A stretch of DNA of 64,000 bases. Source: a virus (taxonomy: Duplodnaviria > Caudoviricetes). Numbering within the stretch: the first letter of the stretch is position 1; each line of letters starts with the position of its first letter. This document shows positions 2,953-58,990 of this stretch, in pieces. A program made the position numbers and the translations under genes. Where the stretch lies: positions 224,001 through 288,000 of the IMG/VR virus record IMGVR_UViG_3300007171_000004. One strand, given 5' to 3'. The notes below the pieces were generated by a model. That model saw only the letters and a list, made by a program, of their open reading frames with translations, made no database searches and was not told the DNA's origin.

Positions 2953-2991
2953 CTATATAAATAGAAAATGCTCTCTTTCGAGAGCATCATC

Positions 2992-4158
2992 TTACTCCTC
3001 AGTCTGCTCTTCTTGCTCTGTAGGCCCTTCAAGCACGTCAGTAACAAGCTTTGCATAATTTGCCCCAGAGATTTTAATCCTACCACAAATGTACTCGAAT
3101 ACGGTAGCAGAATTATCGTTTCTCGTCTTATTAGACGGGGCTGGTTGGTCCATCAAAGCTTCTAGGAATTCATACTTATCCTTAGATTCAATTACTTCTC
3201 CTGTATCAGGATGAACATAACTGAACTTCTTTCTGACTTCTTTGATATATTCGAAGCCCTTAGACTTTGCCTTGAAAATAAATTCATCAATAAGATTTGG
3301 TGCTTCATCATCTCCAAAGAGAATTCTAAACTCACAAGAGACTCCAGGTTGAGAGTATCGAGCTTTCTCTACTCTACAAACAGATTTGCCACCAATTACT
3401 TCATCGACTCCATTTTCATCTTTACGAGTCACCTTACCAGCAGCTCCGTTAATTTTATTAATCCAGAGTCTTGCACTAGTGAAGTAACTCATAGCATTTC
3501 CACCAGAGGCTTGCTTTACCATAGAACCTGGCATTGCTCCTGAACCCATATAGAGTTGATTGATAATAATTGCCAAAGTATCAGTGGCATTACATTCTGC
3601 AACAAGTTTTTGGACAAAACGCTTTGTAAATCTTGCATGAGCTCCAATGGTAGCCACATCTTCAAGTGACTTATCATGTTCTACCGAAGGAATCATAGCT
3701 GTAATTGAGTCAATTACAATTACTCCTGCTTGACCACTATGAGCAATTTCAAGAGCAAGTTCACCATATAATTCAGCAGTTGCAACATTTTCAATCAGCA
3801 ATAAAGATTCAGTATCTACTCCGCACATTTTTGCTCTACGTGCCAAATATGAACCTTCTACATTTATAAAAACACATTGTTTTCCAAGCTTTTGTGCTTC
3901 TGCAATCACCTTATATGCTAACCAAGTTTTACCTGATTGAGTTTCTCCAGCAAATTCAACCACAATACCCTCAGGTAATCCCATTCCAGGAGCTAGAATT
4001 GCATCAATTTCAGGCACTCCTGTTGGAATATAATTTGGTTCAACTGTTTCACCGCTTGAGAGAGCCTTTTCATTAATCTTAAGAGCCTTCATTTTAGAAG
4101 CAATAAGATTCCTCAGGTCTTTGCCATTTGAATTATTATCTAATTTTACTTTTTCCAT
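2992..4158 (-). CDS. recA: RecA/UvsX-like recombinase
   Basis: IPTG..ID.IL..G.GLP.G, Walker A GETQSGKT, VIVIDSITAMIP, IIINQ, GGNAMSYFTSARL. Confidence 0.92.
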   Translation of the reverse strand: MEKVKLDNNSNGKDLRNLIASKMKALKINEKALSSGETVEPNYIPTGVPEIDAILAPGMGLPEGIVVEFAGETQSGKTWLAYKVIAEAQKLGKQCVFINVEGSYLARRAKMCGVDTESLLLIENVATAELYGELALEIAHSGQAGVIVIDSITAMIPSVEHDKSLEDVATIGAHARFTKRFVQKLVAECNATDTLAIIINQLYMGSGAMPGSMVKQASGGNAMSYFTSARLWINKINGAAGKVTRKDENGVDEVIGGKSVCRVEKARYSQPGVSCEFRILFGDDEAPNLIDEFIFKAKSKGFEYIKEVRKKFSYVHPDTGEVIESKDKYEFLEALMDQPAPSNKTRNDNSATVFEYICGRIKISGANYAKLVTDVLEGPTEQEEQTEE

Positions 4159-8900: not shown

Positions 8901-9248
8901 GATTCTAAGGAGATTTTTATATCCAGTTTCATTTTGAGCAAGCAGAGTTAAATGGTTGAGTTTCTGCCTTCTATTGTCTTCAGTTCTGGATTTATCAAAG
9001 CGATCTGGACAAGTGTAAACCTCAATGCCAATGATAGGTTTAATAGTCGGATAATCTACAGAAGTTGTCCTACATCCGTCAACAAAATCACAAACACCAC
9101 CTAATTTGCCATGGTCTGTTATTGCCGTGGCCTTAAAACCCATTTCACGAGCTTTTATTGCATAAGCTTGAGGAGATGGCAAAGCATCTTGAATTGAAAA
9201 GTGAGTATGGGCATGTAAATGAACAAAATCTTGTTTACTGTTACACAT
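5976..9248 (-). CDS. dnaE: DNA polymerase III alpha subunit (PHP + Pol C-family domain) with a ~107-aa insertion
   Basis: FVHLHAHTHFS, AITDHG, GIRGSGVGS, FERFLNP, LPDVDTD, GIHAAGV, KYDYLGL, GIMVYQEQ, GYAFNKSH. Confidence 0.97.
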   Translation of the reverse strand: MCNSKQDFVHLHAHTHFSIQDALPSPQAYAIKAREMGFKATAITDHGKLGGVCDFVDGCRTTSVDYPTIKPIIGIEVYTCPDRFDKSRTEDNRRQKLNHLTLLAQNETGYKNLLRITEYGADPNAFYYSPRVDWSVLEKHSEGVIALSGCLASELSQALIKEDDEEANNVVSKFKNLYGDRYFVELQYHKIEEQKSNLPKLIRLADKYNVKYVASNDVHYLEAKDWKLHDILIQMRDLREASSGVAKKNGKKEAYGSRQFFLKSFDEMMMIFNKKPEALYNTLDLADSIEDYFKIDVPHLLPSAIIPKNNEAFNNFKAKNLPYHKDNEAYLAYLSLAGLKRAGLDKNSTYRDRLKYELKQIWHMGVTDYFLIQRELVEFMKGDEILFGIRGSGVGSLVNFCLEVCPVDPIKWGLLFERFLNPGRGTQYEIDFKEYSSKEYIKNHGIADQSLASLRLKKMTDQWLLDHPEFAHKGPEIAKELWVLENQGLSSYMCEMIDNNIEVKDNIAQSWVALASGISNQAPEADLKIAKVAPLPDVDTDVDDSKRDRIINWAKNRFGEENVAQIGTWGTYKAKAAVLSALKTSERFNNKYGSNVHQEALKITATIPKMPDTTIDSALLESPEFKYYYSVWREEIDTAKELVGTISNFGIHAAGVLISKNRISESTPIENSKGTICSALEWKHCERVGLVKYDYLGLANLRQIDYAFKLIEERHGKKLTLNEIPLEDPMVFKNIYAKGKTSSVFQCASKGMQESLKIINPTCTNDLIAVVALFRPGPKDYIPVYAQGKSRPHEIKYAHPIIEKHLSVTYGIMVYQEQAMEMARDMAGFNWLEVDKLRKAISKKSGKDFDDACNLFRTKAIQREIPEKAVDEVLSLMEKFGGYAFNKSHACTYAILSYWNAWLRLYYPNEWMASAIHVEKDDEDKLAIYRRECALDGIQISKPSINESGTTTLVNTKGDIMLPLTSIKGVGTRVDDLIKLQPFDNLEDFAARARPNRGMVKALAENGALDCLLQGQKFYDIDSFLEFWDNVVEKRNELEKQKLRDAKRKFISAAPEILTDKTDGKIIRQSKPVERKLNSSSKLFDDDLFD

Positions 9249-10294: not shown

Positions 10295-10856
10295 TTTTAT
10301 TCCATATCAAATTAAGTTTATTTGTGTCATTAATATTATATGCATCATCTACATCTAAATATACCCTTTCAAAAAAATCATCTAAAAAGGGATATTTGCT
10401 TTGATATTTATGAATTCTATCAGTTATAGCAAAAAGATATGTATTTTTATTTAAACCACCAATTAATCCACTAGTAAAGCTTCTATTCAAATAATCGTTG
10501 ATAGTACTTTTAATTTTATTTACTGTCAATGACATCTCATATTCTTCAGCTTGTGCAGAAACGCCAGCACAAATTGAAAGCTTTTGTATTGCAGCTGGAA
10601 AAGAGATAGATTCAATCTTTTGAACTAAATTAATTAAATTTCCAGTCTCACCACATCCAAAACAATTAAAATAATCAGATTCAAGATTATAACCAAAAGA
10701 TGGAGACCTGTCGTTATGATCTGGAAAAGGGCATGAACAATTAAGCCAGTTATTTCCAGACTCAACAAATTCTAAATCGTATTCATTTTCTAAAAAAGCC
10801 CTAGAGTCTAGAGCTTTTAGTATTTCTTTAATGTATTCTTGAGAGTATTGAATCAT
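10251..10856 (-). CDS. Stand-alone CHC2 zinc-finger (primase zinc-binding domain) protein
   Basis: CSCPFPDHNDRSPSF...FNCFGCG...GNLINLVQKIESISFPAAIQKL, the DnaG ZBD signature. Confidence 0.9.
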   Translation of the reverse strand: MIQYSQEYIKEILKALDSRAFLENEYDLEFVESGNNWLNCSCPFPDHNDRSPSFGYNLESDYFNCFGCGETGNLINLVQKIESISFPAAIQKLSICAGVSAQAEEYEMSLTVNKIKSTINDYLNRSFTSGLIGGLNKNTYLFAITDRIHKYQSKYPFLDDFFERVYLDVDDAYNINDTNKLNLIWNKIGDKVKEHAKRHMG

Positions 10857-12460
10857 TATAATTTCCAGCCAGATAAATCCATTGTATCGATAATAGAAGA
10901 TGTGTCAAGAGGAGCAAAGTCATCATCATCTTCATCTTTTGAACTTCCTATAATATTAGTTGCTTTAATTTCAGCAGTTGGTTTATCAGTTTTTTGCCCA
11001 TTAGATAGATCATGAAAAGCCATAATAGTTTCTTTCTCTCGTTCATCCATTTCTCTGATTTTATTATATTCTGGATCTAAAGAAATAGGGAATGGGAAGA
11101 AATATGCATCTCTCATTTTGACAGGATGGACAATACAATAATTCTTTTCACGATTGGGTTCAATGGCTACAGCATAGGTACAAAGGTGCAAAAGAGCTTG
11201 TCCTCCAGATGCAGCAGCCTGATCGTAAGACATGAATTTCTTATTTTCTTTTTGCTTTCTTGCATCACGAATTGTTTCTCTATTAATCTGTTGTGCTGTA
11301 ATGACTGGAATACTATATCGCTTTGCCATCTTAAATAATTCATTAACAGCCTTAGTTTGATTTTCCCAATCCTTGGAGCCATTAGGAGCATTTCTGACAG
11401 TCATATTTCCAATATAGTCAACAACAAGAAGATCTGGCTTGCCCTTGGTTTTTATAAGCTCTTTGATTCTAGAGTCAATATATTCTGGAGTAGGATCTTC
11501 CATGTTAACATCGTATTCAAAATATGGGCCATCTTTCATAGATTTTAGGCCATTTAATACTTTCTTTAGTTCTGCTGCATCAAGTTGTTGGTCTTTAACT
11601 TGTGCATAAGGAATTTCAAACTTCAATGAAATGTGCCTAAGTAAACAAAGCCAAGAATTCATTTCAAAGGACATGTACAGAACATTTTTCTTAGCAACTT
11701 CATTTGCATGTAAAGCTGCATTGAGCATAAATACACTCTTACCACCAGAAGATGGAGCCAAGAATACAATAATCTGTCCTGGAAGAAATCCAAAAGTTTT
11801 AGAATCAAGCTCTTTAATTCCACAAGTTATGCCCTTATATAACTCAGGGTTTTCAATTCTCTTTGTATATTCTTTTTCAAAATATTCTGAAGAATCAGCA
11901 ATATCCAAAGTATGGGCTTCTCCACCTCTGTCATGAAGTTCTTTATCTAATTGTTCGACTACTTCTGTAATTGATTTATAAGTTTCATCAAGATTCTTAC
12001 TTACAAGATTATTATGAGTATCATCCATAAGTTGTTTGATGATACGTAAAGCTTGTCGTTTTTTAAGTTCTTCAATTAATTGAGGAAGATCATCAGGATT
12101 AACGTCACAATCATTAATCTCAGACCACAAAAGCATGAATTTAGTGCGTTCAGCTTCACTAACTCCGCTAGAATTTAATTTATGCTGAAATACAAAATCA
12201 GTGTAAGAAGAAACATCATTCTTCTTATAATATGCACAAATCATATTATAAATAGCTCTTACAAATGATTTGTTACTTTCGACATCCATAGAATAGAAAT
12301 GCTTACTTGTAATTGCTTTTTCATTAAATTTATCATAAGTCTTAACGGTAGACTTCAGGTGTGCTAATGCTAGGATTTCAAGTTCAAGTTGGTCAAATTT
12401 ATTCATTTTTGTACGCTCGGCAATTTTATGTTCAAACATTCTTCTAACAGCGAAGTCCAT
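10856..12460 (-). CDS. dnaB: Replicative DNA helicase, DnaB family
   Basis: GITCGIKELD, Walker A APSSGGKS, LYMSFEM, LLVVDYIG, VITAQQINR. Confidence 0.92.
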   Translation of the reverse strand: MDFAVRRMFEHKIAERTKMNKFDQLELEILALAHLKSTVKTYDKFNEKAITSKHFYSMDVESNKSFVRAIYNMICAYYKKNDVSSYTDFVFQHKLNSSGVSEAERTKFMLLWSEINDCDVNPDDLPQLIEELKKRQALRIIKQLMDDTHNNLVSKNLDETYKSITEVVEQLDKELHDRGGEAHTLDIADSSEYFEKEYTKRIENPELYKGITCGIKELDSKTFGFLPGQIIVFLAPSSGGKSVFMLNAALHANEVAKKNVLYMSFEMNSWLCLLRHISLKFEIPYAQVKDQQLDAAELKKVLNGLKSMKDGPYFEYDVNMEDPTPEYIDSRIKELIKTKGKPDLLVVDYIGNMTVRNAPNGSKDWENQTKAVNELFKMAKRYSIPVITAQQINRETIRDARKQKENKKFMSYDQAAASGGQALLHLCTYAVAIEPNREKNYCIVHPVKMRDAYFFPFPISLDPEYNKIREMDEREKETIMAFHDLSNGQKTDKPTAEIKATNIIGSSKDEDDDDFAPLDTSSIIDTMDLSGWKL

Positions 12461-13218: not shown

Positions 13219-14781
13219 TTAGAATTTCTGTGATGCATTCCTTGCTCTATTATTTGCCCATTTTCTTAAGGCATTTATTGATTCAGCCATAGTTTTGGAC
13301 AAAGGAACAGTTTCTTTGATAGCTTTTTCTAAATCACTATTATTTATTTCTCTAGAATAATAAAATGCTTCATACATAGCAGATACAATAGAAGCTTCAA
13401 TCTCAGCGCCAGTGAATCCATCAGTTTTTTCAACTAATCTAACAACATCGAAATTTTTTGGGTCTCTATTTCGTTTTTTAAGATGAATTTCAAAAATAAC
13501 TTGTCTTTCGTATGCATCAGGAAGATCTACAAAGAATATTTCGTCGAATCTACCCTTGCGTAAAAGTTCAGGAGGTAATTGAGAAACATCATTGGCAGTA
13601 GCAACAACAAATACAGGACTTTTCTTTTCTTGCATCCATGTTAGCCAAGATCCCATAACTCTTGAAGTTGTTCCACCATCAGTCATAGAAGAGCTTGAAG
13701 TGCCTGACATTCCCTTGTCAATTTCATCACACCATAAAATAGCTGGCGCAACACTTTCTGCAACTTTAAAAACTTGTCTCATGTTGCTTTCAGAGGAGCC
13801 TACTAGACCAGAAAAGATTTTGCCCATATCCAATCTTAGTAGGGGAAAATTCCAATAGTTTGCAACAGCCTTGGCACATAATGATTTACCAGCTCCCTGA
13901 ACTCCAACTAATAATATGCCCTTAGGATTTTCAGGTAAGCCAAATTCTACTGCTTCTTGTGTAAATGCTCGTTTTCTTGTATTAAGCCAGTTTTTGAGCT
14001 CATCTAAACCACCAACTGAATCTAAATCTGCATTTACATCAATCCAATCTAACAACCCTGACTTCCTAATAATATCTTTCTTTTGTTTGATAATTTCTTC
14101 AGGATTTAATTCATTGTTTTTGATAAAATTGTATGCACAAACTTGCTCACACTCAGTTAAAGTTAGTCCCTGAAATGAATCTACAATTTTCTCAAGTTCT
14201 TCTTTTGAATAATCTAATTTTAATTTTGTACTTTTTCTGGACTTAAGAGTTTCTAACATTTGTAGAATTTTTTCATTCAAATGTTCTTTTTCAGGAAGTG
14301 GCCAATCAATAATAGCTACATTTTTTTCTAATTCTTGTGGTAATTCAAGTTCAGGAGAAAGAATTATAAGAGCTTTATTCTTAGTGATGCAATTTATAGA
14401 TAGATTTCTCAAATGTCTTGTCAGAGAAATTTCAATTTGACCTTGTATAGATTTTAGACCAAAAAATTTATTAAAATCTTTCAATATTAAAATAAAAAAC
14501 TTATCTCTGGGAACTTCAAGATCATCGAACCATTGTAAAATTTCTACCTGATCCATTTTTCTTTGAGCTTTGTCAGGCAATAATTCATCTGAAGTTCCTG
14601 ATAAACCGCTAATAATATCCCAGAATCCAATATTAAATTCCATAGTTGCGTTTTTGAATAGATTCTTAATTGATTCTATCACTCGCATTTCTTCATGGGA
14701 TATTAAATAAATGATTGGCCTCTTAGATCTAAGATGCCAATCAAGTTCTTTCAATGCAATGTCGTGGTTAGAGTTATTCAT
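13219..14781 (-). CDS. AAA+ ATPase, Ycf46-like
   Basis: VGGLDELKNWL, GILLVGVQGAGKSLCAK, ILWCDEIDKG, VVATAND, LLRKGRFDEIFFVDLP, GFTGAEIE. Confidence 0.88.
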   Translation of the reverse strand: MNNSNHDIALKELDWHLRSKRPIIYLISHEEMRVIESIKNLFKNATMEFNIGFWDIISGLSGTSDELLPDKAQRKMDQVEILQWFDDLEVPRDKFFILILKDFNKFFGLKSIQGQIEISLTRHLRNLSINCITKNKALIILSPELELPQELEKNVAIIDWPLPEKEHLNEKILQMLETLKSRKSTKLKLDYSKEELEKIVDSFQGLTLTECEQVCAYNFIKNNELNPEEIIKQKKDIIRKSGLLDWIDVNADLDSVGGLDELKNWLNTRKRAFTQEAVEFGLPENPKGILLVGVQGAGKSLCAKAVANYWNFPLLRLDMGKIFSGLVGSSESNMRQVFKVAESVAPAILWCDEIDKGMSGTSSSSMTDGGTTSRVMGSWLTWMQEKKSPVFVVATANDVSQLPPELLRKGRFDEIFFVDLPDAYERQVIFEIHLKKRNRDPKNFDVVRLVEKTDGFTGAEIEASIVSAMYEAFYYSREINNSDLEKAIKETVPLSKTMAESINALRKWANNRARNASQKF

Positions 14782-30470: not shown

Positions 30471-32291
<1,821 letters not shown>

Positions 32292-33789: not shown

Positions 33790-33820
33790 AAAAAAGGGGA
33801 GATTCATTCTCCCCTTTTTT
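33790..33820. terminator. Bidirectional intrinsic terminator
   Basis: AAAAAAGGGGAGA-TTCAT-TCTCCCCTTTTTT between convergent genes. Confidence 0.8.
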
Positions 33821-35147
33821 ATAATCCATAACGGGATTTTGTTAAGTTGTAATAAGCTAGAATTTCTGATGATGATAAAGCTCGGTTATAAATTCTTAAT
33901 TGCGATATGTTTCCTGCAAAAGTTTCTGAAATGTAACTATTACCGCCAACAAAAACATTATTTGTTGTGACTGGATTCGAATTTAAACTTGAAAGATTTT
34001 CAGTTGTAGAAGAATTATTTAGACTAAATGTTATTACTGGATTTGAAATTGTACCAGATACACTTATAGCTGCAAAATTCCATGTATTATTTGTTATAGA
34101 ACCCAAATTTTTATTTTGATAACTTCCAGCAGATAAACTAGTATAATAAGTTACTATATTATTATCAACTCTAAATAGAGAAATCAAATATCCTCCACCA
34201 GTACTAGAATAATTTGCATATAGTGTTGAATATTGTTTTGTTGAAGTTTGATAAAACCAACAAATTATAGTAACATTTATTTGAAGAGTTCTTAAATATG
34301 TATTGTTACCTAGACTTATATAATCATTTGTTCCATCAAAAACCCATGTTCCGCCGTTGCTTGAACTAAAAGATACACCGTTTGTTAAAGCTCCATTATT
34401 ATTATAAATTGAAAGATCATTTGCTAAAGTCGAAGAGGGCTCACTAAAACTATAAGGATTACCAGCATCTAGAACTAGTACAGCAGAATCGTTAGAGAAT
34501 GGGTAGCTATAAGTTACTTGTTTAAAATGAAGAAGATTTGTGGAAGATATAAATTTCTCTACAACGCCAACAATTAAAATTTCTTGAGCAATGGAATTAA
34601 CATTAACTTTAACCAATTTTCCAGCATTGACACCAGAACCGAAAGTGAGTAAATCTCCAGAATTAAAATCTATTTGTGTAGTGTAATCTAAACCATAATC
34701 ACCATGCAAAACTCTAACAAACTGATCTGTAATGAAAATATTGTTAGGTTGATTATAAACAGCCAATCCTCTACGTGAAATAACCATGTTTTCTGATGGA
34801 TTATAGGGCTTATTCAAAGATTCATTAAGATTATCATTCAAAGCTCTTTTTGTTGTTAAAACTTCATTATTTTCAGTGCGTATAAAACTGTAAGAGCTAT
34901 CAATATAACTTGAACCAATAACATCTGGAACTATTATTGTGTTTGCAGCAGAAGAATGATCAGATGTAGCAAAACCTAAGAACTTTCCAATTTTTTGAGA
35001 TAATGTTTTTTGGAATATTAAAGAATTATCAGCTTTAACCACTCTTCCATTATCATCTCTCATAAGTGCCATTCCAGCTTTAAAATCAACATCAACAAAG
35101 ATATCAACATTTTCTACTGCATTTGAAGTTACTGTAAAGATTGCCAT
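33819..35147 (-). CDS. LamG/concanavalin A-like lectin-domain virion protein, paralog 5
   Basis: Conserved ~210-aa N-domain plus LDAGNP...FDGTNDY...WNFAAIS...F.GNISQLRIYNRALS. Confidence 0.85.
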   Translation of the reverse strand: MAIFTVTSNAVENVDIFVDVDFKAGMALMRDDNGRVVKADNSLIFQKTLSQKIGKFLGFATSDHSSAANTIIVPDVIGSSYIDSSYSFIRTENNEVLTTKRALNDNLNESLNKPYNPSENMVISRRGLAVYNQPNNIFITDQFVRVLHGDYGLDYTTQIDFNSGDLLTFGSGVNAGKLVKVNVNSIAQEILIVGVVEKFISSTNLLHFKQVTYSYPFSNDSAVLVLDAGNPYSFSEPSSTLANDLSIYNNNGALTNGVSFSSSNGGTWVFDGTNDYISLGNNTYLRTLQINVTIICWFYQTSTKQYSTLYANYSSTGGGYLISLFRVDNNIVTYYTSLSAGSYQNKNLGSITNNTWNFAAISVSGTISNPVITFSLNNSSTTENLSSLNSNPVTTNNVFVGGNSYISETFAGNISQLRIYNRALSSSEILAYYNLTKSRYGL

Positions 35148-36445
35148 TATAAACCATACCTAGATTTTGTTAAGTTGTAATATGCCGAAATTTGATCGAG
35201 TGTAAGAGCCGTAAAGTAAATTCTCATTTCAGATAAATACATTCGAGCGTAAGAATGCGGGCTTGTTTTAACACTTCTAGCACCAATTCCAAGATCTTCA
35301 TTGTTTGAACCCATATCCCCAGTAGTTGCAACTATATTTGTCAAAGAGTTATTTATATAAGCCTTTTGATTTGTTTTATCATATGTTACAGTAATTAGTT
35401 TCCAAGCTGAAGAATCCATAGGCGCAATACTTCTCCATTGCCAAGCTGGAAGATAAGCATAATCGAATGAATTACTATAATATCCAGTTTCATATATATT
35501 TTCTTTATTTAGGATAATATTTCCACCTAAAGAATCAGTAGGAAATCCATCAATTTTCACCCATGTCATTGTAGTAAGTTGTCTTGTTCCTGGATTTAAG
35601 CTTGGGCTGTCTAAGACTCTTATGTAATCATTTGTTCCATCAAAATAAAAAGAACCGCCTCCAAAACTACTATAAGATACTCCATTATATAAAACTCCAT
35701 TGTTATTATTTGGGGTTAAATCATATACAGTGTTTCCAGAAATGTATGAATAAGGATTTGCAGCATCTATGGCAAATTGTAAGTTATTAGATTGAAATGT
35801 TACTAAATATGGGGCCTGTCTAAAATGAAGAAGATTAGAAGTTGAGATAAATTTTTCTACAATGCCAACAATTAAAACATCTGGGCCAATAGAATTCACA
35901 TTTATCTTTACAAGTTTTCCAGCATTTATTCCAGATCCAAAAGTTAGCAAATCTCCAGCATTAAAATCTATTTGTGCTGTTGAGTCTACTCCAAAATCTC
36001 CATGTAATACTCTTGAAAATTGATCCGTTATGAAGATGTTGTTTGGTTGATTGTATACTGCTAATCCTCTTCTAGATGTTGTTAATGTTTCTGAAGGATT
36101 ATAGATTTTGATGTTAGTTTCATCTTGGTTATCATTTAAGGCTCTTTTTGCTAATATTACTTCATTATTTTCAGTTCTAATATAATTGTAAGAATTGTCA
36201 ATATAACTAGATCCAATTATATCTGGAACAATGATTGTATTTGAAGCTGAGGAATGATCACTGGAAGCAAAACCCAAGAACTTGCCGATTTTTTGTTCAT
36301 TTGTTTTATAGAGTAGTAAACTATTATCAGCAGGAACAGCTCTACCGTTATCATCTCTCATTAACGCCATACCAGACTTGAAAGATGATGAATAGAATAT
36401 ATCTACATTTAATACTTCGTTAGATGTTACGGTGAAAATAGCCAT
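35147..36445 (-). CDS. LamG lectin-domain virion protein, paralog 4
   Basis: Same N-domain; IDAANP...FDGTNDY...WKLITVTYD...MRIYFTALT. Confidence 0.85.
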   Translation of the reverse strand: MAIFTVTSNEVLNVDIFYSSSFKSGMALMRDDNGRAVPADNSLLLYKTNEQKIGKFLGFASSDHSSASNTIIVPDIIGSSYIDNSYNYIRTENNEVILAKRALNDNQDETNIKIYNPSETLTTSRRGLAVYNQPNNIFITDQFSRVLHGDFGVDSTAQIDFNAGDLLTFGSGINAGKLVKINVNSIGPDVLIVGIVEKFISTSNLLHFRQAPYLVTFQSNNLQFAIDAANPYSYISGNTVYDLTPNNNNGVLYNGVSYSSFGGGSFYFDGTNDYIRVLDSPSLNPGTRQLTTMTWVKIDGFPTDSLGGNIILNKENIYETGYYSNSFDYAYLPAWQWRSIAPMDSSAWKLITVTYDKTNQKAYINNSLTNIVATTGDMGSNNEDLGIGARSVKTSPHSYARMYLSEMRIYFTALTLDQISAYYNLTKSRYGL

Positions 36446-37734
36446 TATAAACCATATCGGGATTTGTTAAGGTTGTATTGATTTAAAACTTCTTGAGATG
36501 ATAATACTTTAGTATAAATTTTTAAGTATCCAAAAGAAGATCTTGTTCTTTCATTATTAAATTGATTCGTAGCAGATGCTAAAGCGAACGCTGTCAGTGT
36601 ATTATTTACTAATGATGAAGAATAAATGGAGACTCCATTTACAAAAATTTGATGTGCTGCAGCATTTTTTACCAATGTAATATGCGTATATTGTCCCAAT
36701 AATAAAGTGTATGATGTATTGATCCAACCTGATCCTTGCACATATAAATGTATATTATTTAAAGGATAAACTCCACCTGTCCCAAGAGCTATGATTGCTG
36801 AATTTCCGTCTCCATCAAATATCCTGTTAAGTGCTAGTTGCCCAGTAAGTTGATATACATTTACAAACATTTCTAAAGTATAATTAGAAATAGAAAATCC
36901 AGAAGAAGAACTAGAGTCATCAGCACCATCAAAAACAATTTCACCATTATAAGCGCTTGTATATGAGACTCCATTCAAAAGAGTCATATTGTAGTTATTT
37001 GAAGCTAAATTATACCAAGTACTCCCTGTTTTTGGATATGATAAGAGATTAGCAGCATCATAGTTTAATAAAGTAAAATTTCCAAAGCTTAAGCTAAAAC
37101 TTACTTGTCTAAAATGTAATAGATTTGTTGATGATACATATTTTTCAACAATACCCACAATCAATAATTCAGGGCCAAAAGAATTAACATTTACCTTAAC
37201 AAGTTTCCCGGCATTAACTCCACCACCAAAAGTAAGTAAATCACCAGGGTTTAATGCAACAGTGTCTAATCCATCAAGGCCATAATCTCCATGTAAAACA
37301 GGCTTAAATTGATCTGTTATGAAGATATTATTAGGTTGGTTATATACTGCAAGGCCACGTCTCGAAATTATATTTTTATCAGATGGATTATATAAATTTG
37401 GAATTCCCTCATTTAAATTATCAACTAGCCCTCTCTTAGAAATTACAACCTCATTATTTTCAGTTCTTATGTAGTTGTAAGAATTATCAATATAACTTGA
37501 TCCAATGACATCTGGAATAATTATAGTGTTTGAATAAGCTGAATGATCGCTTGTTGCAAAACCTAAGAATTTACCAACTTTTTGTTCGAGAGTTTTAAAT
37601 ACTAACAATTGACTATCTGCTGGAACTCCTCTACCATTATCATCCCTCATTAAAGCCATACCAGCCTTAAATGATGTAGAAATCATGATGTCTACATTTT
37701 CAACAGCATTAGAAGTTACAGTAAATATAGCCAT
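36445..37734 (-). CDS. LamG lectin-domain virion protein, paralog 3
   Basis: Same N-domain; YDAAN..SYP..GSTWYNL...FDGADD...YTHITLV...LKIYTKVLS. Confidence 0.85.
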   Translation of the reverse strand: MAIFTVTSNAVENVDIMISTSFKAGMALMRDDNGRGVPADSQLLVFKTLEQKVGKFLGFATSDHSAYSNTIIIPDVIGSSYIDNSYNYIRTENNEVVISKRGLVDNLNEGIPNLYNPSDKNIISRRGLAVYNQPNNIFITDQFKPVLHGDYGLDGLDTVALNPGDLLTFGGGVNAGKLVKVNVNSFGPELLIVGIVEKYVSSTNLLHFRQVSFSLSFGNFTLLNYDAANLLSYPKTGSTWYNLASNNYNMTLLNGVSYTSAYNGEIVFDGADDSSSSSGFSISNYTLEMFVNVYQLTGQLALNRIFDGDGNSAIIALGTGGVYPLNNIHLYVQGSGWINTSYTLLLGQYTHITLVKNAAAHQIFVNGVSIYSSSLVNNTLTAFALASATNQFNNERTRSSFGYLKIYTKVLSSQEVLNQYNLNKSRYGL

Positions 37735-39044
37735 TAAGATACAAGCCTTGGATAAATAGCATTATGATTTCTTTGAGCTTGTTCTGCTGTAAATCCAGTG
37801 TTATAGAATCTTACTGCAGCGATTTTTCCAGCTGTTTGCCAAGATGCCCATACAGTAATTTGAATTTCATGAGTATTTGTATAGTTATTTGGGTTATATA
37901 TAGAATCATCAAAAATACCATTAATATAAGATGTCATTACGCCAGCAGTTCTTGTAAATATGATAGAATACCAAGTGTTAATATATACAGGTCTTTTTCC
38001 TCTTAAGAAAATTCCACTTGGTGTTGTCAGTGGGTTCCAGAAAATCGGATTACCTGCGAACCATGATCCAATTACCCAAGAGTTTCCAGAAGGTACGCCA
38101 CCAGTATTTGCCTTAGCTAAAATACCAGTAAGAAAACCCTCTAATGCATAAAAAACAATTTCAACTGTAAAATCTCCTGAAAAATCCATAATTGCATTGT
38201 GTGGAATTGTCAAACGGTCATCAATTGTATCAAGAACAATTACTCCCCCGTTTTCAGCCGACCAAAAAGCTCCATTATTCATAGAACCATTTAAGTTATT
38301 TCCACTCAAGTCATACCAAGTTGTGCCAGTTCCAGGATAAGATACTGGACTGGAAGCATCTAAATTCAAATAAAGCCCTGTTGTAGCAATCGAAACTGTA
38401 TTACTATAAGTTTCTAAAATATGCCTAAAATAAAGAACTTTTGAGGCAGAATCATGCTTTTCTACAGAGCCTATAATAATTACTGAAGGACCATTGCCAG
38501 ATAAATCAGCTTTTACTAATTTACCAGCATTAACACCAGCTCCAAATGTTAAAAGATCTCCTGGAGAAAGAATTACATCTACATTTGAATCTTCTGCAAC
38601 AGCCATGGCTAATTTTGTTGCAAATTGGTCTGTGATATAAATTTCTCCTTGGAGATTATATACGCCAGTACCCCTTATGGTTTCTGGATTGTTATTGGAT
38701 ATTTGATAAAAATTATTTACATTCTCATCTCTGTAATCTAAAATAGATCTTTTAGGAGCAGCATAAGGAGCATTTGTATTATCGTAAAATGCTGAATCAA
38801 TATTGTAATTACTGCCTACTGGATCGTTATTAATAATTGTGCTAGTAGTTGAGTGATCATTAGAAGAAAATCCAATAAATTTGCTTCTTTGTTCTGCTAA
38901 GCTATCAAAACTGAAAGAAGCTCTATCAGCTAAAACAGCTCGTCCATTATTATCAAACATAAGAGCAGAACCAGCTTTAAAGTCAGTTGAAATTGACACT
39001 GGAATATTTACTACGTACTTATTGAAAAGAGGAAAGATTGCCAT
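37734..39044 (-). CDS. LamG lectin-domain virion protein, paralog 2
   Basis: MAIFPL subtype N-domain; LDASSP.SYPGTGTTWYDLSGN...WYSIIFTR...VRFYN. Confidence 0.85.
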   Translation of the reverse strand: MAIFPLFNKYVVNIPVSISTDFKAGSALMFDNNGRAVLADRASFSFDSLAEQRSKFIGFSSNDHSTTSTIINNDPVGSNYNIDSAFYDNTNAPYAAPKRSILDYRDENVNNFYQISNNNPETIRGTGVYNLQGEIYITDQFATKLAMAVAEDSNVDVILSPGDLLTFGAGVNAGKLVKADLSGNGPSVIIIGSVEKHDSASKVLYFRHILETYSNTVSIATTGLYLNLDASSPVSYPGTGTTWYDLSGNNLNGSMNNGAFWSAENGGVIVLDTIDDRLTIPHNAIMDFSGDFTVEIVFYALEGFLTGILAKANTGGVPSGNSWVIGSWFAGNPIFWNPLTTPSGIFLRGKRPVYINTWYSIIFTRTAGVMTSYINGIFDDSIYNPNNYTNTHEIQITVWASWQTAGKIAAVRFYNTGFTAEQAQRNHNAIYPRLVS

Positions 39045-40342
39045 TAAATTAATTTACCCATACTTGCATTATAATTTTGTCTTACTTGTTCTGCTGTCAT
39101 ACCTTGGGAATATAAGCGTACAAATGGAGTTTTCAATTTTGACCATAAACCATAAGAGTCCCAAGATCCAATAACAAAACCAGTGGAAGTATTTAAGCTT
39201 AAACTGTTATTAAAAGAAAATCTCAAAGTACCATTATAATAACAATTGATAACACCACTATTACGAGTTACAATTACATGGTTATACTTAGTAAAAGAAT
39301 TTTCTCCACCCCATTGATCTAAAGCTGGGGGATACCAAGATCCACTATATCTGATTAAAAACCACATAGAATTGCCACCAGTTGCAGACAATACCCAGTT
39401 AGCCTCTGCGTCTGAACTTCTTCTATGTAACCAACCTCCGCCTCCAACTTGTTTAATCAATGCTCCTTCAATGGTAAAATCTCCAGGAAAATCTAATAGT
39501 GAATTATCTGCTACAAGGGCTTGGTCATTAGTCCCGTCAAATGTCATTACACCACCATTTTCGCTTGACCAAAGTACACCATTCTGGAGTTCAGCATTCA
39601 ATCCATTACCACTCAAATCATACCAAGTAGTTCCTGACCCTGAATATGATGTAGGATTGCTTGCGTCTAAATGAACTGTGATACCTGTTGTAAATAACGA
39701 CACTGTATTATTGTAACTTTCTAATACATGTCTAAAATACAATAAATTACTGGCTGCATCAAACTTCTCAACTACTCCAATAATCAATACAGAAGGACTA
39801 ATAGCTGAAGTATCTGCCTTTACTAATTTTCCAGCATTGATTCCAGCTCCATAAGTAAGTAAATCACCAACATTAAAATCTACTTGAGCTGTACCATCAG
39901 AATCAATAAATAAACTTGCAACTCTTGAAAATTGGTCTGTAATATAAATTTCGCCTTGAAGATTGTAAATTCCAATGCCTCTTTTAGAATATTCGGAAAA
40001 TAATACTCCAGAAACTGATTCGTCTCTAAATTCATAAATAGATCTTTTACTTGCAGAATAATGAGAATTAACATTATCTACAAATTTATTATCAGATGAA
40101 ATATAATTACTGCCTACAGGATCAGACATTAAAATAGAAGATAAATTAGTGTGATCTCCTGAAGCAAAACCTAGAAATTTACCAGATCCTTCAACGATTG
40201 AATTATAACTAATATTACTTCTGTCCGCTTTAACAGCATTACCATTTGAATCAATAACAAGCGCCATACCAGAAGTAAAGCTCTCATTAGCAATTACTGG
40301 GAAATTTACTGCATGTTTATTATATAGAGGAAAAATTGCCAT
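39044..40342 (-). CDS. LamG lectin-domain virion protein, paralog 1
   Basis: MAIFPL subtype N-domain; LDASNP.SYSGSGTTWYDLSGN...FDGTND...NHVIVTR...VRLY. Confidence 0.85.
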   Translation of the reverse strand: MAIFPLYNKHAVNFPVIANESFTSGMALVIDSNGNAVKADRSNISYNSIVEGSGKFLGFASGDHTNLSSILMSDPVGSNYISSDNKFVDNVNSHYSASKRSIYEFRDESVSGVLFSEYSKRGIGIYNLQGEIYITDQFSRVASLFIDSDGTAQVDFNVGDLLTYGAGINAGKLVKADTSAISPSVLIIGVVEKFDAASNLLYFRHVLESYNNTVSLFTTGITVHLDASNPTSYSGSGTTWYDLSGNGLNAELQNGVLWSSENGGVMTFDGTNDQALVADNSLLDFPGDFTIEGALIKQVGGGGWLHRRSSDAEANWVLSATGGNSMWFLIRYSGSWYPPALDQWGGENSFTKYNHVIVTRNSGVINCYYNGTLRFSFNNSLSLNTSTGFVIGSWDSYGLWSKLKTPFVRLYSQGMTAEQVRQNYNASMGKLI

Positions 40343-46821: not shown

Positions 46822-47190
46822 TCACTCAGTTACACAATAAGATATACAAACAGTTGGCTCCCAGAAAGATTGCAAATATCGTACCTTTACAGAATTAACA
46901 TATCTAGTAGTGTCATTAGGAACAATTTTTGCTCTTACTAATAAATCTACAATAGGTTTTATCAAATTGTCAGAGTCGTGTTTCATCTTCCAATTCATAT
47001 CTGCCATAACTAAAATTTCTACATCAACTGGAAATGAATCAGCTGGCAACATAGATTCAACAATTATTGGTAAATTCTTATCTATCCATTCTCTATATTT
47101 TTTACTTTTAATTAATTTGCCATAAGCTACTGGAGTGTACATCTTATTTGCTGAAAATGGATGTGTAATAGTACAATACTTCTTAAGCAT
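46822..47190 (-). CDS. rusA: RusA-family Holliday junction resolvase
   Basis: PFSANKMY, SKKYREW, KHDSDNLIKPIVDLL, IVPNDT. Confidence 0.8.
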   Translation of the reverse strand: MLKKYCTITHPFSANKMYTPVAYGKLIKSKKYREWIDKNLPIIVESMLPADSFPVDVEILVMADMNWKMKHDSDNLIKPIVDLLVRAKIVPNDTTRYVNSVKVRYLQSFWEPTVCISYCVTE

Positions 47191-47238
47191 ATATTTCTTT
47201 TACAGGGATATAGGAGTAAAATCGGTAAAATTAAAATC

Positions 47239-48924
47239 ATGTGGTATCGAATATCTAATCAATTACAATTACCTGAAACTGATGTCCCTCAAAATCCTGT
47301 AGAACCAGAAGTCCAGGAAGAAGAGCAAGAGCAACCTCAGCTTTTAGAAACAGAAAAACCAACGCAAAGCTTATTTTTTAGTGAATGGGCTAAGGATCAT
47401 TATGTTCCAACTCAACCTGTTTATCATGGGACGACTCACGACTTTGACGAATTTCAAATTATCAACACTGGAGATAATTCTTTAGGTGATGGTTTCTATT
47501 TCACTAGTGAAGACAAAGAAGCTGAAAAATTCTATACAGGAAAAGGCGGAGATCAACTGCGACAAATTGATCGAATCGCCACAGATTTTGCTGATTCATA
47601 TTATGGCAACGATGATGAACTATTTGAATTGTTTGGTGATAAATATCCAGAATGTTTCCAAGATGGCGAAGTTAAAGATGCTTATGAATTAGGTGAAAAA
47701 ATTGGATCTGATCGAATTCTTGGAGGAAAACCTAAAGTAATTCCAGCTCATATTAGAATGAAAAATCCATTTGTCTTAACTCAAATGAATCCTAACTTTC
47801 CTTACAGCCCAACTATGTTTTATGATGATTTCCAAGAAGAAGAAATTCCAGAAGCTGATGGGGATGATGGATATGACCCTGAAAATAATGAATCGCCAGA
47901 AAAATTAATTATTGAAAAAGATGGAGAGAAAAAATATTCTTTCAAAACATTAATTCACAAACTCTATGATATTTTATTAGAATATTATGAAGATTATAAT
48001 GCTTATGAATTTATTAACCAAGTAATATTAGATAATGCAAACCCTGGTGCAGATATCAACGCAATGCATATTTTCCAATCTATAACAAATCAAACTGAAT
48101 ATTTCAAACATCAATATGAAGATGATTACCATAGCGAAATAGTAAAAAAACTTATGGAATCTTTAGGTTTTGACAGCATTATCCAAGACCCAAAGGCATT
48201 CTGGCCATCTAATGAATATGAACCAGGAACACAACATTATTTCTTATGGAAGCCTGAGAACATTAAACACGCTAGAGAAAATATTGAATTTAATCCTGAT
48301 AGCAGAAAAATTTATTCAGCCTATATGTTTAATCCAGAAGGTCAAGGTGTTTTAGATTTAGGCATCAAGCTAAAATATGACCCATCTAATTATGAAGCTA
48401 GAATTGAGAAAGAAAGAAATGACAAGAATTCTCACATGCTAGATATTGGAGCTTATATTAAAGGTACAAATATCAAACTAGGACAGATTGATTTATTTTG
48501 TGATAAATCAGTTCCACCTGAAGAAAGATATGTAGATGTTGAATTAGTTTTAGTCTATGATAATAATAAAAGTTTTAAACAACAACTAAGACAACAATAT
48601 AATCCACTTGAAATAGATGAATTTAGTGGATCAAGAGTTAAATGGGGTATTGGAGAATTTCTTTATAACGCTGCAAGAAAATTGATCCAAGAAAAAATGC
48701 CTGAAGTGAAATATATTGCTGGTAATATTCATAGTAAAGAAGCATTCAAAGCAAGAAATAAAGCGTTCGGTGATCCTTTAGAAATAAAAGATGTTAATAC
48801 AGACACTAATGTTTCTCAATTAGATGCTCAAAAACAAATTCCATATATGGTTTTTGATGAATATACAGAACAACCAGAATTTCGAACAGATGACGCATTT
48901 TGGGTAAAACATAATGTGGTATAA
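47239..48924 (+). CDS. MWYR-leader polyvalent protein: ADP-ribosyltransferase-like domain plus possible C-terminal GNAT
   Basis: PVYHGTTHDFDEF, LGDGFYFTS..EA..FY, VIPAHIRMKNPF, LGFDSII; C-terminal RVKWGIGEFLYNAA. Confidence 0.65.
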   Translation: MWYRISNQLQLPETDVPQNPVEPEVQEEEQEQPQLLETEKPTQSLFFSEWAKDHYVPTQPVYHGTTHDFDEFQIINTGDNSLGDGFYFTSEDKEAEKFYTGKGGDQLRQIDRIATDFADSYYGNDDELFELFGDKYPECFQDGEVKDAYELGEKIGSDRILGGKPKVIPAHIRMKNPFVLTQMNPNFPYSPTMFYDDFQEEEIPEADGDDGYDPENNESPEKLIIEKDGEKKYSFKTLIHKLYDILLEYYEDYNAYEFINQVILDNANPGADINAMHIFQSITNQTEYFKHQYEDDYHSEIVKKLMESLGFDSIIQDPKAFWPSNEYEPGTQHYFLWKPENIKHARENIEFNPDSRKIYSAYMFNPEGQGVLDLGIKLKYDPSNYEARIEKERNDKNSHMLDIGAYIKGTNIKLGQIDLFCDKSVPPEERYVDVELVLVYDNNKSFKQQLRQQYNPLEIDEFSGSRVKWGIGEFLYNAARKLIQEKMPEVKYIAGNIHSKEAFKARNKAFGDPLEIKDVNTDTNVSQLDAQKQIPYMVFDEYTEQPEFRTDDAFWVKHNVV

Positions 48925-57447: not shown

Positions 57448-57915
57448 ATGACGCAAGCAGAAATAATATCTTTGTTTCCAGATATTATTCATGATACTAT
57501 AAGCCATCACACGAAAGGTTTAGGGGAGATGGTTTTCTACAATAAGGAATGGGAGAATCCACTTTATTGGTTTGACAAGTTGTTGAAATATTCCAATCAT
57601 GCTGAGTTACGTAGTTATGAGCGTGATTTGCCATTAATAGATTTCTTGCCAATAGATTCAAAATTTCTATACAGCACTAGGAAAATAGATGTATATTCTA
57701 TGACTTTTGAAACAACTATTAAAGGCAAGAGGGTGGAAATCGCAATCAACTCTTTAGGTGCTGTAATGACTGTGTATCCTATCATCAACACCATAGCAGA
57801 TAAGTTTCAGTTCAAATATAAGCGGTATCTTGGTGCATTTAAACAGCCTGATGATTATATTCCACCAATCATTACAGAATATGATTTAAACGATGTAGAC
57901 ATGGAGTATTTATAA
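57448..57915 (+). CDS. Hypothetical protein
   Basis: 155-aa ORF followed by a terminator. Confidence 0.7.
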   Translation: MTQAEIISLFPDIIHDTISHHTKGLGEMVFYNKEWENPLYWFDKLLKYSNHAELRSYERDLPLIDFLPIDSKFLYSTRKIDVYSMTFETTIKGKRVEIAINSLGAVMTVYPIINTIADKFQFKYKRYLGAFKQPDDYIPPIITEYDLNDVDMEYL

Positions 57916-57924
57916 GGTAATTTC

Positions 57925-57951
57925 AAAGCAGGGTTTTTACTCTGCTTTTTT
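57925..57951 (+). terminator. Intrinsic terminator
   Basis: AAAGCAG...CTGCTTT followed by a T-run. Confidence 0.65.
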
Positions 57952-57991
57952 ATTTATATAAGAGCAAAAGTTTCCAATTGATGGCAAAGAC

Positions 57992-58028
57992 AAAAAAAAT
58001 CCCCTAGAGTTTTTAAGGCTCTAGGGGA
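57992..58028 (-). terminator. Intrinsic terminator ending the candidate ncRNA transcript
   Basis: Minus strand TCCCCTAGAG-CCTTAAAAA-CTCTAGGGGA-TTTTTTTT. Confidence 0.8.
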
Positions 58029-58072: not shown

Positions 58073-58346
58073 TGTGGTTGGCTGGAGTTCAACCAGTACG
58101 GAACACAAGGGCAGTTCTTTCGATGGTCTCTGCCTCCGATGGTATTCTTGTCTCATATGAGAGCATAATACCCAACCACATATTATATGCCTTGACATAA
58201 CTGTTTGCGTCAGTCCCTGCCAAGGACAGTAAGAACTTGTGGCTTTTTGACCACCCCAAGGTTGCTACCCTTATTTGAATCTCGCAATAGATTCTAGCCG
58301 TTCTGGATTCTTACTGGTTGAGGGAGGTTCTAGACTCCATCCCTAC
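58073..58346 (-). ncRNA. Candidate structured ncRNA (~275 nt) with tRNA-like 3' domain
   Basis: No ORF of 60 aa or more; own sigma70-type promoter and terminator; many hairpins including 9-bp CAGTAAGAA/TTCTTACTG, 10-bp ATGTGGTTGG/CCAACCACAT, T-arm-like CTGG-TTGAACT-CCAG and a GAAA tetraloop. Confidence 0.6.
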
Positions 58347-58352
58347 ACCAAT

Positions 58353-58381
58353 ATATTACGCCATCTCTAAGTAATCTGCAA
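58353..58381 (-). promoter_or_regulatory. Sigma70-type promoter for the candidate ncRNA
   Basis: TTGCAG-N17-TAATAT. Confidence 0.6.
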
Positions 58382-58403: not shown

Positions 58404-58459
58404 GTTATTTGGATCATTCTGTCGGGGGGTTAACCCCCCGAGGACTTGTTTTAAATAAT
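58404..58459. repeat. Symmetric element copy 1
   Basis: GTTATTT-N12-CGGGGGGTTAACCCCCCG(58423-58440)-N12-AAATAAT. Confidence 0.95.
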
Positions 58460-58540: not shown

Positions 58541-58990
58541 TTATAGTTTACAGGCAATATCTTCTGTTGTCAAGGTGTATTCTGGAAGAAATTCCTTAAC
58601 AAGTTTCCATCCATCTTTTTCGTAAACATTGTAAACTTGCCAGACATTATTAACATACAGATAAAAGTAATCTACACTGGAAGAATATATGTTGTGTAAT
58701 TCATCCATTGAGGTAATTACAGCATCTACGCCATCTTCCCCACGGTCTCTGTTATAGAATACTGTTACACCCTCTTCTGGGTTATCAAAAGTATGTTCAC
58801 CTTCAGGATGTAATTCAGATGTAAGATAACTCATATCACCAAAACTAAGCAATTCATTGATGCTATCTACTGTATTGTAATTTGCAACCAGAGTTTGACC
58901 TACACCATCAGGATATCCATCAAAGTGACAATAAGAATGCTTGATTGTTCCATCATAAAGCATAATACCGATTCTAGCGTGAGTTGACAT
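58541..58990 (-). CDS. Conserved-type phage hypothetical protein (YCHxDGYP motif)
   Basis: MSTHARIGI..DG....YCHFDGYPDGVG..L; SD AAGGAG. Confidence 0.85.
   Translation of the reverse strand: MSTHARIGIMLYDGTIKHSYCHFDGYPDGVGQTLVANYNTVDSINELLSFGDMSYLTSELHPEGEHTFDNPEEGVTVFYNRDRGEDGVDAVITSMDELHNIYSSSVDYFYLYVNNVWQVYNVYEKDGWKLVKEFLPEYTLTTEDIACKL

Follow-up and report, generated by a model that had tools for sequence, protein, structure and literature searches.

A conserved two-module phage RNA, absent from Rfam, with an anticodon-less, tRNA-shaped 3′ domain

What does a large phage encode in a 625-nt gap between a minus-strand gene for a 149-aa protein (58541-58990) and a convergent plus-strand gene for a 155-aa protein (57448-57915)? 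The gap lies in a 64,000-nt stretch (the window) of the virus record IMGVR_UViG_3300007171_000004, and an original prediction, made from the letters alone, had placed in it a structured RNA with a tRNA-like 3′ domain. We find that positions 58073-58346 hold a phage RNA gene on the minus strand, which specifies a folded RNA and carries a promoter-like site and a hairpin/U-run terminator. Comparison across homologues shows the gene to be conserved, structured, non-coding, single-copy and composed of two modules, and predicts that it is independently transcribed. Counted from its start, the RNA measures ~290 nt up to where a 3′ cloverleaf ends and ~355 nt up to the terminator. The window belongs to a viral contig of 129 kb (CheckV completeness 36%) that encodes DnaE, DnaB, RecJ and DnaK homologues and for which no close cultured relative was found. 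Since related contigs reach 316-358 kb, the source is a very large uncultured phage.

The transcription signals were read from the sequence as follows.

58353-58381, minus strand: promoter-like site, with a −35 box TTGCAG (58376-58381), a 17-nt spacer and a −10 box TAATAT (58353-58358)
57992-58027, minus strand: intrinsic terminator, CCCCUAGAG, a 9-nt loop and CUCUAGGGG, then A and U8

The boxes place the putative transcription start near 58346. A generic consensus promoter scan passed over the TTGCAG-17-TAATAT site in the window (the first hexamer has only 3 of 6 consensus matches), although equivalent −35 and −10 boxes of the sigma-70 type were found 5′ of 82 homologues. The 17-nt spacer is kept in 66 of these; the −35 boxes read TTGACA, TTGCAT or TTGCAA, and the −10 box is TAATAT in 50 and TATTAT in 15. 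Likewise, the strong terminator claimed for the window was missed by a generic scan, the limit of which is exceeded by the 9-nt loop, although a perfect-stem hairpin with a T run follows domain 2 (below) in 63 of 79 homologues, at a median distance of 23 nt. Promoter and terminator are oriented alike, both on the minus strand. Between the terminator of the upstream gene and the RNA promoter there is also a perfect G+C-rich palindrome, TCGGGGGGTTAACCCCCCGA (58422-58441); the scan classed it as a plus-strand terminator, but a site for protein binding or a bidirectional terminator would fit it just as well.

How widespread is the element, and does it behave as a gene in its own right? Homologues were gathered by neighbour-gene searches and DNA pattern scans, and the metagenome and total family counts are lower bounds. 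Within IMG/VR ~21 contigs carry the element, as do at least 120 contigs from metagenomes. The full-length copies number at least 127, at least 104 of them distinct and at least 86 below 97.5% identity, and the RNA is single-copy in every genome examined. Members are fairly close, with a mean column identity of 74%. The RNA nonetheless evolves far slower than its surroundings: between the window and the related contig L002 it is 90% identical over 341 nt, whilst the upstream protein is 57% identical and the flanks cannot otherwise be aligned. Only 60 of 126 loci have the 149-aa gene within ~0.9 kb upstream, and the RNA is therefore an independent gene rather than part of a fixed operon. More generally, neighbour genes are shuffled among loci, and the downstream genes differ too.

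Two short open reading frames (ORFs), 53 and 56 aa long, lie across the region. Of the 79 homologues, only 29 and 18 keep the two longest such frames open, and lengths fall into all three classes modulo 3; the region is non-coding, with no conserved reading frame. These ORFs, together with the cloverleaf-like shapes, are what could be cited in favour of decayed tRNA genes, or of a small protein gene, with no RNA function at the locus. We give that explanation almost no credence: it is contradicted by the conservation and covariation data, in that the overlapping ORFs are not conserved, compensatory changes affect 34 pairs among at least 104 distinct sequences, and the RNA is better conserved than the flanking genes, with its promoter and terminator kept.

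The family was also sought outside the metagenome contigs. A blastn search of 50,697 deposited phage records with the region gave no match. A collection of species-representative genomes gave one, in a 4.3-kb contig of a metagenome-assembled genome (MAG) of the Crocinitomicaceae, and no copies were found in 150 other Crocinitomicaceae genomes. We suspect that the contig is a mis-binned phage fragment and, on the strength of these two results, regard the family as phage-borne.

Is the fold real? As a single sequence the RNA has a minimum free energy of −94.1 kcal/mol (z = −3.34 against 200 shuffles), and RNAalifold, run on the 79 homologues that make up the covariation alignment, gives the same helices as our explicit structure. 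The proposed pairs are 95.9% standard in this alignment. Changes on both sides were seen in 34 of the 79 pairs, compared with 21.2 ± 1.8 in column shuffles (0 of 500 reached 34) and with only 3-7 pairs when partners were slid by 1-3 columns. The significance of the shuffle test is inflated by kinship among the members, whereas the slid-partner controls are not affected. The covariation check suggested with the original prediction thus came out above both kinds of control. G-U pairs are plentiful (columns 162/192 are GU in 35 sequences and 220/244 are UG in 65) and would become A-C on the opposite strand, so the minus strand is the RNA strand, as had been called; the orientation of promoter and terminator agrees.

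The 5′ hairpin and the first module have the following parts.

58321-58344, minus strand: P0, the 5′-terminal hairpin AGGGA/TCCCT (58340-58344 with 58321-58325); 3 of 5 pairs change on both sides
58190-58316, minus strand: domain 1, a four-way junction (P1-P4) plus hairpin P5; 135.7 bits with its covariance model, R1
58307-58316 with 58227-58236, minus strand: P1, the closing helix, CAGTAAGAA(T) / (G)TTCTTACTG; 5 of 10 pairs change on both sides
58277-58294, minus strand: P2, GAATCT/AGATTC with loop AUUGCG; 5 of 6 pairs change on both sides
58258-58272, minus strand: P3, AAGG-GUAGCAA-CCUU; invariant, covariation silent
58239-58254, minus strand: P4, GTGG/CCAC; 3 of 5 pairs change on both sides
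58190-58225, minus strand: P5, a hairpin of two helices with an internal loop and the terminal loop ACGCAAA; 5 of 11 pairs change on both sides
58205-58287, minus strand: loop-loop (kissing) pairing of 5 bp between UUGCG of the P2 loop (58283-58287) and CGCAA of the P5 loop (58205-58209)

All of the hairpins that the original prediction had listed are present where it had put them, with some corrections to the architecture. The closing helix, given as 9 bp, exists but has 10 bp in most members; what had been taken for two more hairpins is one long hairpin, P5, with an internal loop; and the pairing of the P2 and P5 loops had been missed. This pairing is perfect and invariant in 77 of the 79 sequences. 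Two members (L136 and L226) have UUGUG/CGCAA, with a G-U pair, and the most distant member, L010, has UUGUG/CACAA, a single compensatory change. P0 is variable in sequence, with at least two forms in the family and none in L010. Invariant unpaired bases are concentrated in junctions and loops (AACGGCU, CAAA, GUAGCAA, UGACRCAA, CCAUCGAAAGAACUG and CGUACUGGUU). A further pairing of 3-4 bp is possible between GCU(A) of J1/2 and (U)AGC of the P3 loop; both sides are invariant and covariation is silent on it. A scan for more Watson-Crick contacts between the domains yielded phylogenetic noise only.

The second module, at the 3′ end, is the part that had been called tRNA-like and given as 107 nt (58073-58179).

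58073-58180, minus strand: domain 2, a cloverleaf; 139.3 bits with its model, R2, and covariation in all helices except the T arm
58172-58180 with 58073-58081, minus strand: acceptor-like stem, GTGGTTGG/CCAACCAC; 4 of 9 pairs change on both sides
58142-58171, minus strand: long arm at the D position, GTATT/AATAC; 3 of 5 pairs change on both sides in each of the outer and inner helices
58099-58138, minus strand: central arm, CGG/CCG, GGCAG/CUGCC and UC-GAAA-GA, with the tetraloop at 58118-58121
58082-58096, minus strand: T arm, CUGG-UUGAACU-CCAG; invariant

How far does the likeness to tRNA go? The acceptor stem GUGGUUGG/CCAACCAC (8 bp) abuts the T stem CUGG/CCAG (4 bp) without a linker, making 12 bp in total. 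The 7-nt T loop, UU[G/A]AAnU, has U54, U55, R57 and A58 and departs from tRNA only at position 56, which is C in tRNA. To this extent the earlier description stands; domain 2 is tRNA-shaped only in its acceptor/T half. Its four-helix junction has linkers of 0/3/2/0 nt, compared with 2/1/5/0 in tRNA, and the arm at the D position is a 30-nt hairpin of two helices with a variable loop of 3-6 nt and no GG loop. In the central arm, the CGG/CCG helix changes from G-C to U-A or A-U in 13 sequences, and 2 of 5 pairs of GGCAG/CUGCC change on both sides. A GAAA tetraloop replaces the anticodon loop and is invariant in 78 of 79 sequences (the other has GAUA), with a 6-nt bulge beneath. The 3′ end lacks a single-stranded NCCA: this side reads CCACAAAU, and in 71 of 79 sequences a base pair joins positions −1 and 73. 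Five of the 79 members (L021, L120, L153, L225 and L228), and at least one more (L202), carry an extra hairpin between the central and T arms, at the position of the long variable arm in class II tRNAs.

These features bear directly on the role first proposed for the RNA, that of a tRNA decoy that soaks up a host anticodon nuclease or a sensor of uncharged tRNA. Phages reportedly counter tRNA-targeting defences with tRNAs of their own; the 3′ domain is tRNA-shaped; and P3 resembles an anticodon stem-loop, with a 5-bp stem and the 7-nt loop G-U-AGC-A-A. However, GAAA stands in the place of an anticodon loop, there is no free CCA end, the tRNA model gives no score, and P3 is invariant and lies outside a tRNA context. 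Neither form of the decoy proposal is borne out by the structure, and we consider it very improbable.

Does the RNA belong to a known family? With Rfam 15, the whole window gave no match at gathering thresholds, and searches at E≤10 with the whole intergenic region, and with the two domains separately, found nothing over 58073-58346, in keeping with the original failure to match the RNA to any known kind. The hit to a known family that had been named with the prediction as a refutation thus did not appear. All of the intergenic matches at E≤10 fall within the flanking terminator and intergenic segments. One of them, STnc50 at 57919-57999 (41.8 bits; cut-off 55), covers the terminator region outside the RNA and was treated as chance. 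ARAGORN reported 0 tRNA or transfer-messenger RNA (tmRNA) genes in the window, and the tRNA covariance model (RF00005; gathering score 29 bits) gave no score for domain 2 in a 131-nt segment even at E≤10. Conversely, the R2 model had no hits among the true tRNAs of G000, G001 and G004 (three carrier genomes) and of T4. The models for GOLLD, ROOL and other ornate large RNAs gave no match over the RNA at E≤10. RNase P RNA was considered, as CAGAACGGCUA resembles its CR-V motif, and was rejected: there is no P4 partner strand and no Rfam RNase P match. In literature searches the RNA appeared undescribed, though the catalogue of 10,006 candidate viral structured RNAs in PMC10690425 may include it. 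The RNA is a new family, absent from Rfam, of an already known kind: phage structured RNAs with a tRNA-like module.

Variation among the homologues shows that the RNA, first described as one unit, consists of two separable modules, the 5′ one (domain 1) being portable. In seven members (L004 at ~6880-7000, L029, L179, L198, L202, L207 and L221) a structured insertion of ~110 nt lies between the domains. It is closed by a long stem of its own, CGUUACUUGUAA / UUACAGUAACG, has no Rfam match, and shares GGAUUG(C)AA(A)CC with the smaller insertion at the variable-arm position. In L013, a contig of 104 kb with next to no proteins in common with the phage studied, a domain 1 near-identical to that of the window (135 bits) is followed by an unrelated near-tRNA element. 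Against the Rfam tRNA model this element reaches 28.5 bits (cut-off 29). Its acceptor has 7 bp, it carries a D arm and a T arm of canonical form, GGUUCGAGGCC, and its central arm, of 16 nt, has a short hairpin but no anticodon loop. No other copy of this tRNA-like module was found in IMG/VR. The presence of two unrelated tRNA shapes, both anticodon-less, behind one and the same domain 1 suggests that the tRNA shape itself matters. In L010, an 84-kb phage rated 100% complete, with 45% G+C compared with 33% here and very few shared proteins, a TTGACA-17-TAACAT promoter leads straight into domain 1 (120 bits), and within ~20 nt of the end of domain 1 come AAGGGG and the start codon, ATG, of an 88-aa ORF. 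L010 and L013 are each represented by one contig.

Further pattern scans were made for parts of the RNA. Beyond the family, the 17-mer AAGGGTAGCAACCTTGG retrieved 7 loci and GGGTAGCAACC..TGACRCAA retrieved 5, all of them chance, and AACGGCT..GGTAGCAACC retrieved 47 new loci, 0 of which pass R1. The CCATCGAAAGAACTG scan gave no copy of domain 2 alone, and domain 2 was never found without domain 1. The proteins common to the 84-kb phage and the large phages (dUTPase, CHAP, SNase, a weak Tad2-like match and tail-fibre-like repeats) include none that is RNA-related. The Tad2-like (Thoeris anti-defence) match is to a 103-aa protein, at L294 16153-16461 in G004 and at 123.8-124.1 kb in G001; at E 0.0013 it is below the cut-off.

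The RNA could also be a precursor that is cut in two, with the tRNA-shaped module acting as a signal for RNase P (and 3′-end) processing, as in MALAT1/mascRNA. Cleavage at ~58179/58180 would leave domain 1 with a discrete 3′ end and yield a second, small cloverleaf RNA. RNase P measures a 12-bp acceptor/T stack, and such a stack is present here; the stem opens with a G preceded by U, a feature of many pre-tRNAs; the spacing of the domains can vary, as the seven ~110-nt inserts show; and two unrelated tRNA-like modules occur behind domain 1. There is also a precedent in the YrlA RNA of Mycobacterium smegmatis, a substrate of RNase P if the acceptor stem is 7 bp long, but YrlA RNAs without the 7-bp stem are uncut (PMC4201824). 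In the RNA studied here the two bases that flank the stem pair with each other in 71 of 79 sequences and there is no 3′ RCCA, a combination that argues against efficient cleavage. Moreover, domain 2 is conserved far beyond the needs of a generic signal, CCAUCGAAAGAACUG being nearly invariant. On balance we regard processing of this sort as unlikely, although it deserves serious consideration.

The layout of L010 (promoter, domain 1, AAGGGG, 88-aa ORF) raises a different possibility, that domain 1 is a cis-acting leader: a riboswitch aptamer, or an antiterminator that modifies RNA polymerase, which would control read-through into downstream genes. The invariant bases in junctions and loops are aptamer-like, and ~50 loci have a same-strand gene a few hundred nucleotides beyond the RNA terminator. 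Yet in ~125 of the 127 copies collected domain 2 and a variable spacer precede the terminator, and no alternative pairing between aptamer and terminator is evident. The next confirmed gene in the window is convergent (57448-57915, plus strand), the downstream genes differ among loci, and there is no match to a riboswitch or leader in Rfam. A place in the leader of an ORF is seen in L010 only; it keeps a cis role in play, improbable as that is in our judgement. The occurrence of domain 1 at the 5′ end of three different cargoes could also be taken to mean that it is a self-cleaving or otherwise catalytic RNA that trims its own transcript. Small ribozymes are common in phage genomes, and the compact multi-helix fold, the invariant unpaired bases and the tertiary loop-loop lock would suit one. 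Against this, no Rfam ribozyme family matches at E≤10 and the sequence gives no hint of a cleavage site; catalysis is pure inference and the chance of it seems slight.

What, then, does the RNA do? The discrete, conserved transcription unit, the covarying fold, the shuffled neighbours and the modularity together lead us to favour a stand-alone non-coding RNA (ncRNA). We suggest, with slightly less than even confidence, that it acts in trans, the tRNA-shaped module serving as a structural, processing or recognition handle. P0 would be a stabilising hairpin at the 5′ end. Domain 1, with its P1-P4 junction locked to P5 through the 5-bp loop-loop pairing, would be the effector part, offering a pocket or surface to a ligand, a protein or another RNA. 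Domain 2 would seal and stabilise the 3′ end, and its tRNA elbow and acceptor/T minihelix might be recognised by host or phage tRNA-handling machinery; candidates include RNase P or RNase Z, enzymes that modify the T loop, or an elbow-binding factor. Alternatively, domain 2 may simply be a very stable 3′ cap. In either case the RNA would presumably act during infection.

Several observations weigh against a trans-acting RNA with a tRNA-like handle. With no GG loop in the arm at the D position, a tRNA-type elbow in domain 2 is at most predicted, and domain 2 failed every formal tRNA test, by Rfam and by ARAGORN. TROVE/Ro60, RtcB, RVT_1 and PolyA_pol (the CCA-adding enzyme) are absent from the five carrier genomes (G000-G004), and no protein partner was recognised, the neighbours of the RNA being small proteins with no relevant domains. 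P3 and the T arm never vary, leaving covariation silent on both. L013 is a single contig and possibly a chimeric assembly, whilst the position of domain 1 in L010, directly 5′ of a ribosome-binding site and an ORF, is compatible with a role in cis.

A more ambitious proposal is that domain 1 is a new portable class of aptamer or ribozyme that forms a split tRNA mimic with domain 2. If P3 is read as an anticodon stem-loop, it has a U at the position of U33 and A at 37/38. Domain 2 could then supply the acceptor/T elbow. With two contact sites, the RNA could bind the ribosome, or some other machine that binds tRNA, and reprogramme it during infection. Alternatively, by analogy with ROOL and GOLLD, the loop-loop pairing could form between molecules and build an assembly. 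We think this proposal rather unlikely.

Which known RNAs does this one resemble? The T4 species 1 RNA (rnaC) is, similarly, a stable non-tRNA phage RNA with a tRNA-type T arm beside its terminal helix. It is annotated as a 'small, stable RNA' beside tRNA genes, and its fold shows CCGGGUUCGAAUCCCGG, a canonical T arm. A tRNA link is shared, inasmuch as the RNA studied here lies on the same strand as a tRNA cluster ~9-11 kb away. However, rnaC has 139 nt, lacks a separate 5′ domain and sits inside a tRNA transcription unit, whereas the present RNA has its own promoter and terminator; the R2 model had no match in the T4 region and there is no sequence similarity to rnaC. We know of no function for rnaC. 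tmRNAs, which occur in large phages, also join an acceptor/T-arm mimic without an anticodon arm to other structured parts. In tmRNA, though, the ends of the RNA form the acceptor stem around the rest, the 3′ end is a free CCA and a tag is encoded, and the present RNA has none of these; domain 1 sits 5′ of the whole cloverleaf and not inside it. GOLLD and ROOL are phage-borne structured RNAs with invariant loops, variable peripheral insertions and an association with tRNAs in genomes, but they are 500-800 nt long and unrelated in sequence and architecture.

MALAT1 and MEN-beta, in which a functional RNA is followed by a non-decoding, tRNA-shaped element (mascRNA in the case of MALAT1), provide a model for a handle or a processing signal. 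They differ in being eukaryotic and in that cleavage by RNase P and RNase Z and addition of CCA have been demonstrated, whilst the base of the stem here is sealed by an extra pair. In the YrlA ncRNA, found in phages too, a T arm, an arm at the D position and an acceptor-like stem mimic tRNA, without the anticodon part. The YrlA gene lies no more than 4 kb from Ro60 (rsr), on the same strand, and the RNA has a GNCGAAN0-1G motif near its 5′ end and a terminal Ro-binding stem (PMC4201824). Its tRNA-like module lies inside a long 5′/3′ stem, whereas that of the present RNA is a 3′ appendage to another domain. The YrlA motif is not found near the 5′ end of our RNA, the nearest string, AUCGAAAG, being the apical hairpin of domain 2. 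TROVE (PF05731) was not detected in G000-G004, which include records that are 89% and 100% complete, while control genomes were positive; a host-encoded Ro60 is possible. Nor was a reverse transcriptase (RVT_1) found in G000-G004, and the neighbours have no relevant domains, which gives no sign of a retroelement or of an RNA-guided nuclease.

The cellular roles of the known phage tRNA look-alikes and ornate RNAs (T4 species 1 and 2, YrlA, GOLLD and ROOL) are mostly unsettled. The family described here offers a small, defined case, with ~290 nt, more than 100 natural variants and a fold supported by covariation. It also provides a natural dissection, domain 1 being found with three 3′ partners: the usual cloverleaf, an unrelated anticodon-less near-tRNA and an mRNA. 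The use of an anticodon-less tRNA shape and the role of domain 1 thereby become directly testable. Because the family is missing from Rfam, phage annotation leaves the gene blank.

The phage also carries true tRNA genes on the same strand as the RNA: Arg(tct), Thr(tgt), Gln(ttg), Glu(ttc), Asn(gtt) and Lys(ttt), at L241 3260-5144 and 14382-14455 (~101.5-103.4 kb and 112.7 kb in G000). Five of them form the cluster ~9-11 kb upstream of the RNA, and the related contigs L015, L021, L034 and L024 have this five-tRNA cluster too, ~5 kb upstream of the RNA. In the metagenome contig L226 a tRNA-Leu(taa) gene (2928-3010) begins ~25 nt past the cloverleaf, where co-transcription with the RNA is possible.

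Other features of the window lie apart from the RNA. On the minus strand at 33819-40342 there are five head-to-tail paralogues of 429-442 aa with 31-67% mutual identity; the one tested has a Laminin_G_3/concanavalin-like domain. Several proteins of the 84-kb phage G004 match G000 at another site, 14.4-16.0 kb, and both the five-paralogue array and these matches look like arrays of receptor-binding proteins. A full-length phage Hsp70/DnaK is encoded on the minus strand at 30471-32288 (Pfam HSP70, E 7e-247), beside a replication module comprising RecJ (388-2181), DnaE (5976-9248), DnaB (10856-12460) and an AAA ATPase (13219-14781). Finally, the plus strand at 47161-48924 encodes a 587-aa protein with an ART-PolyVal domain (an ADP-ribosyltransferase of polyvalent proteins; E 1.6e-11).

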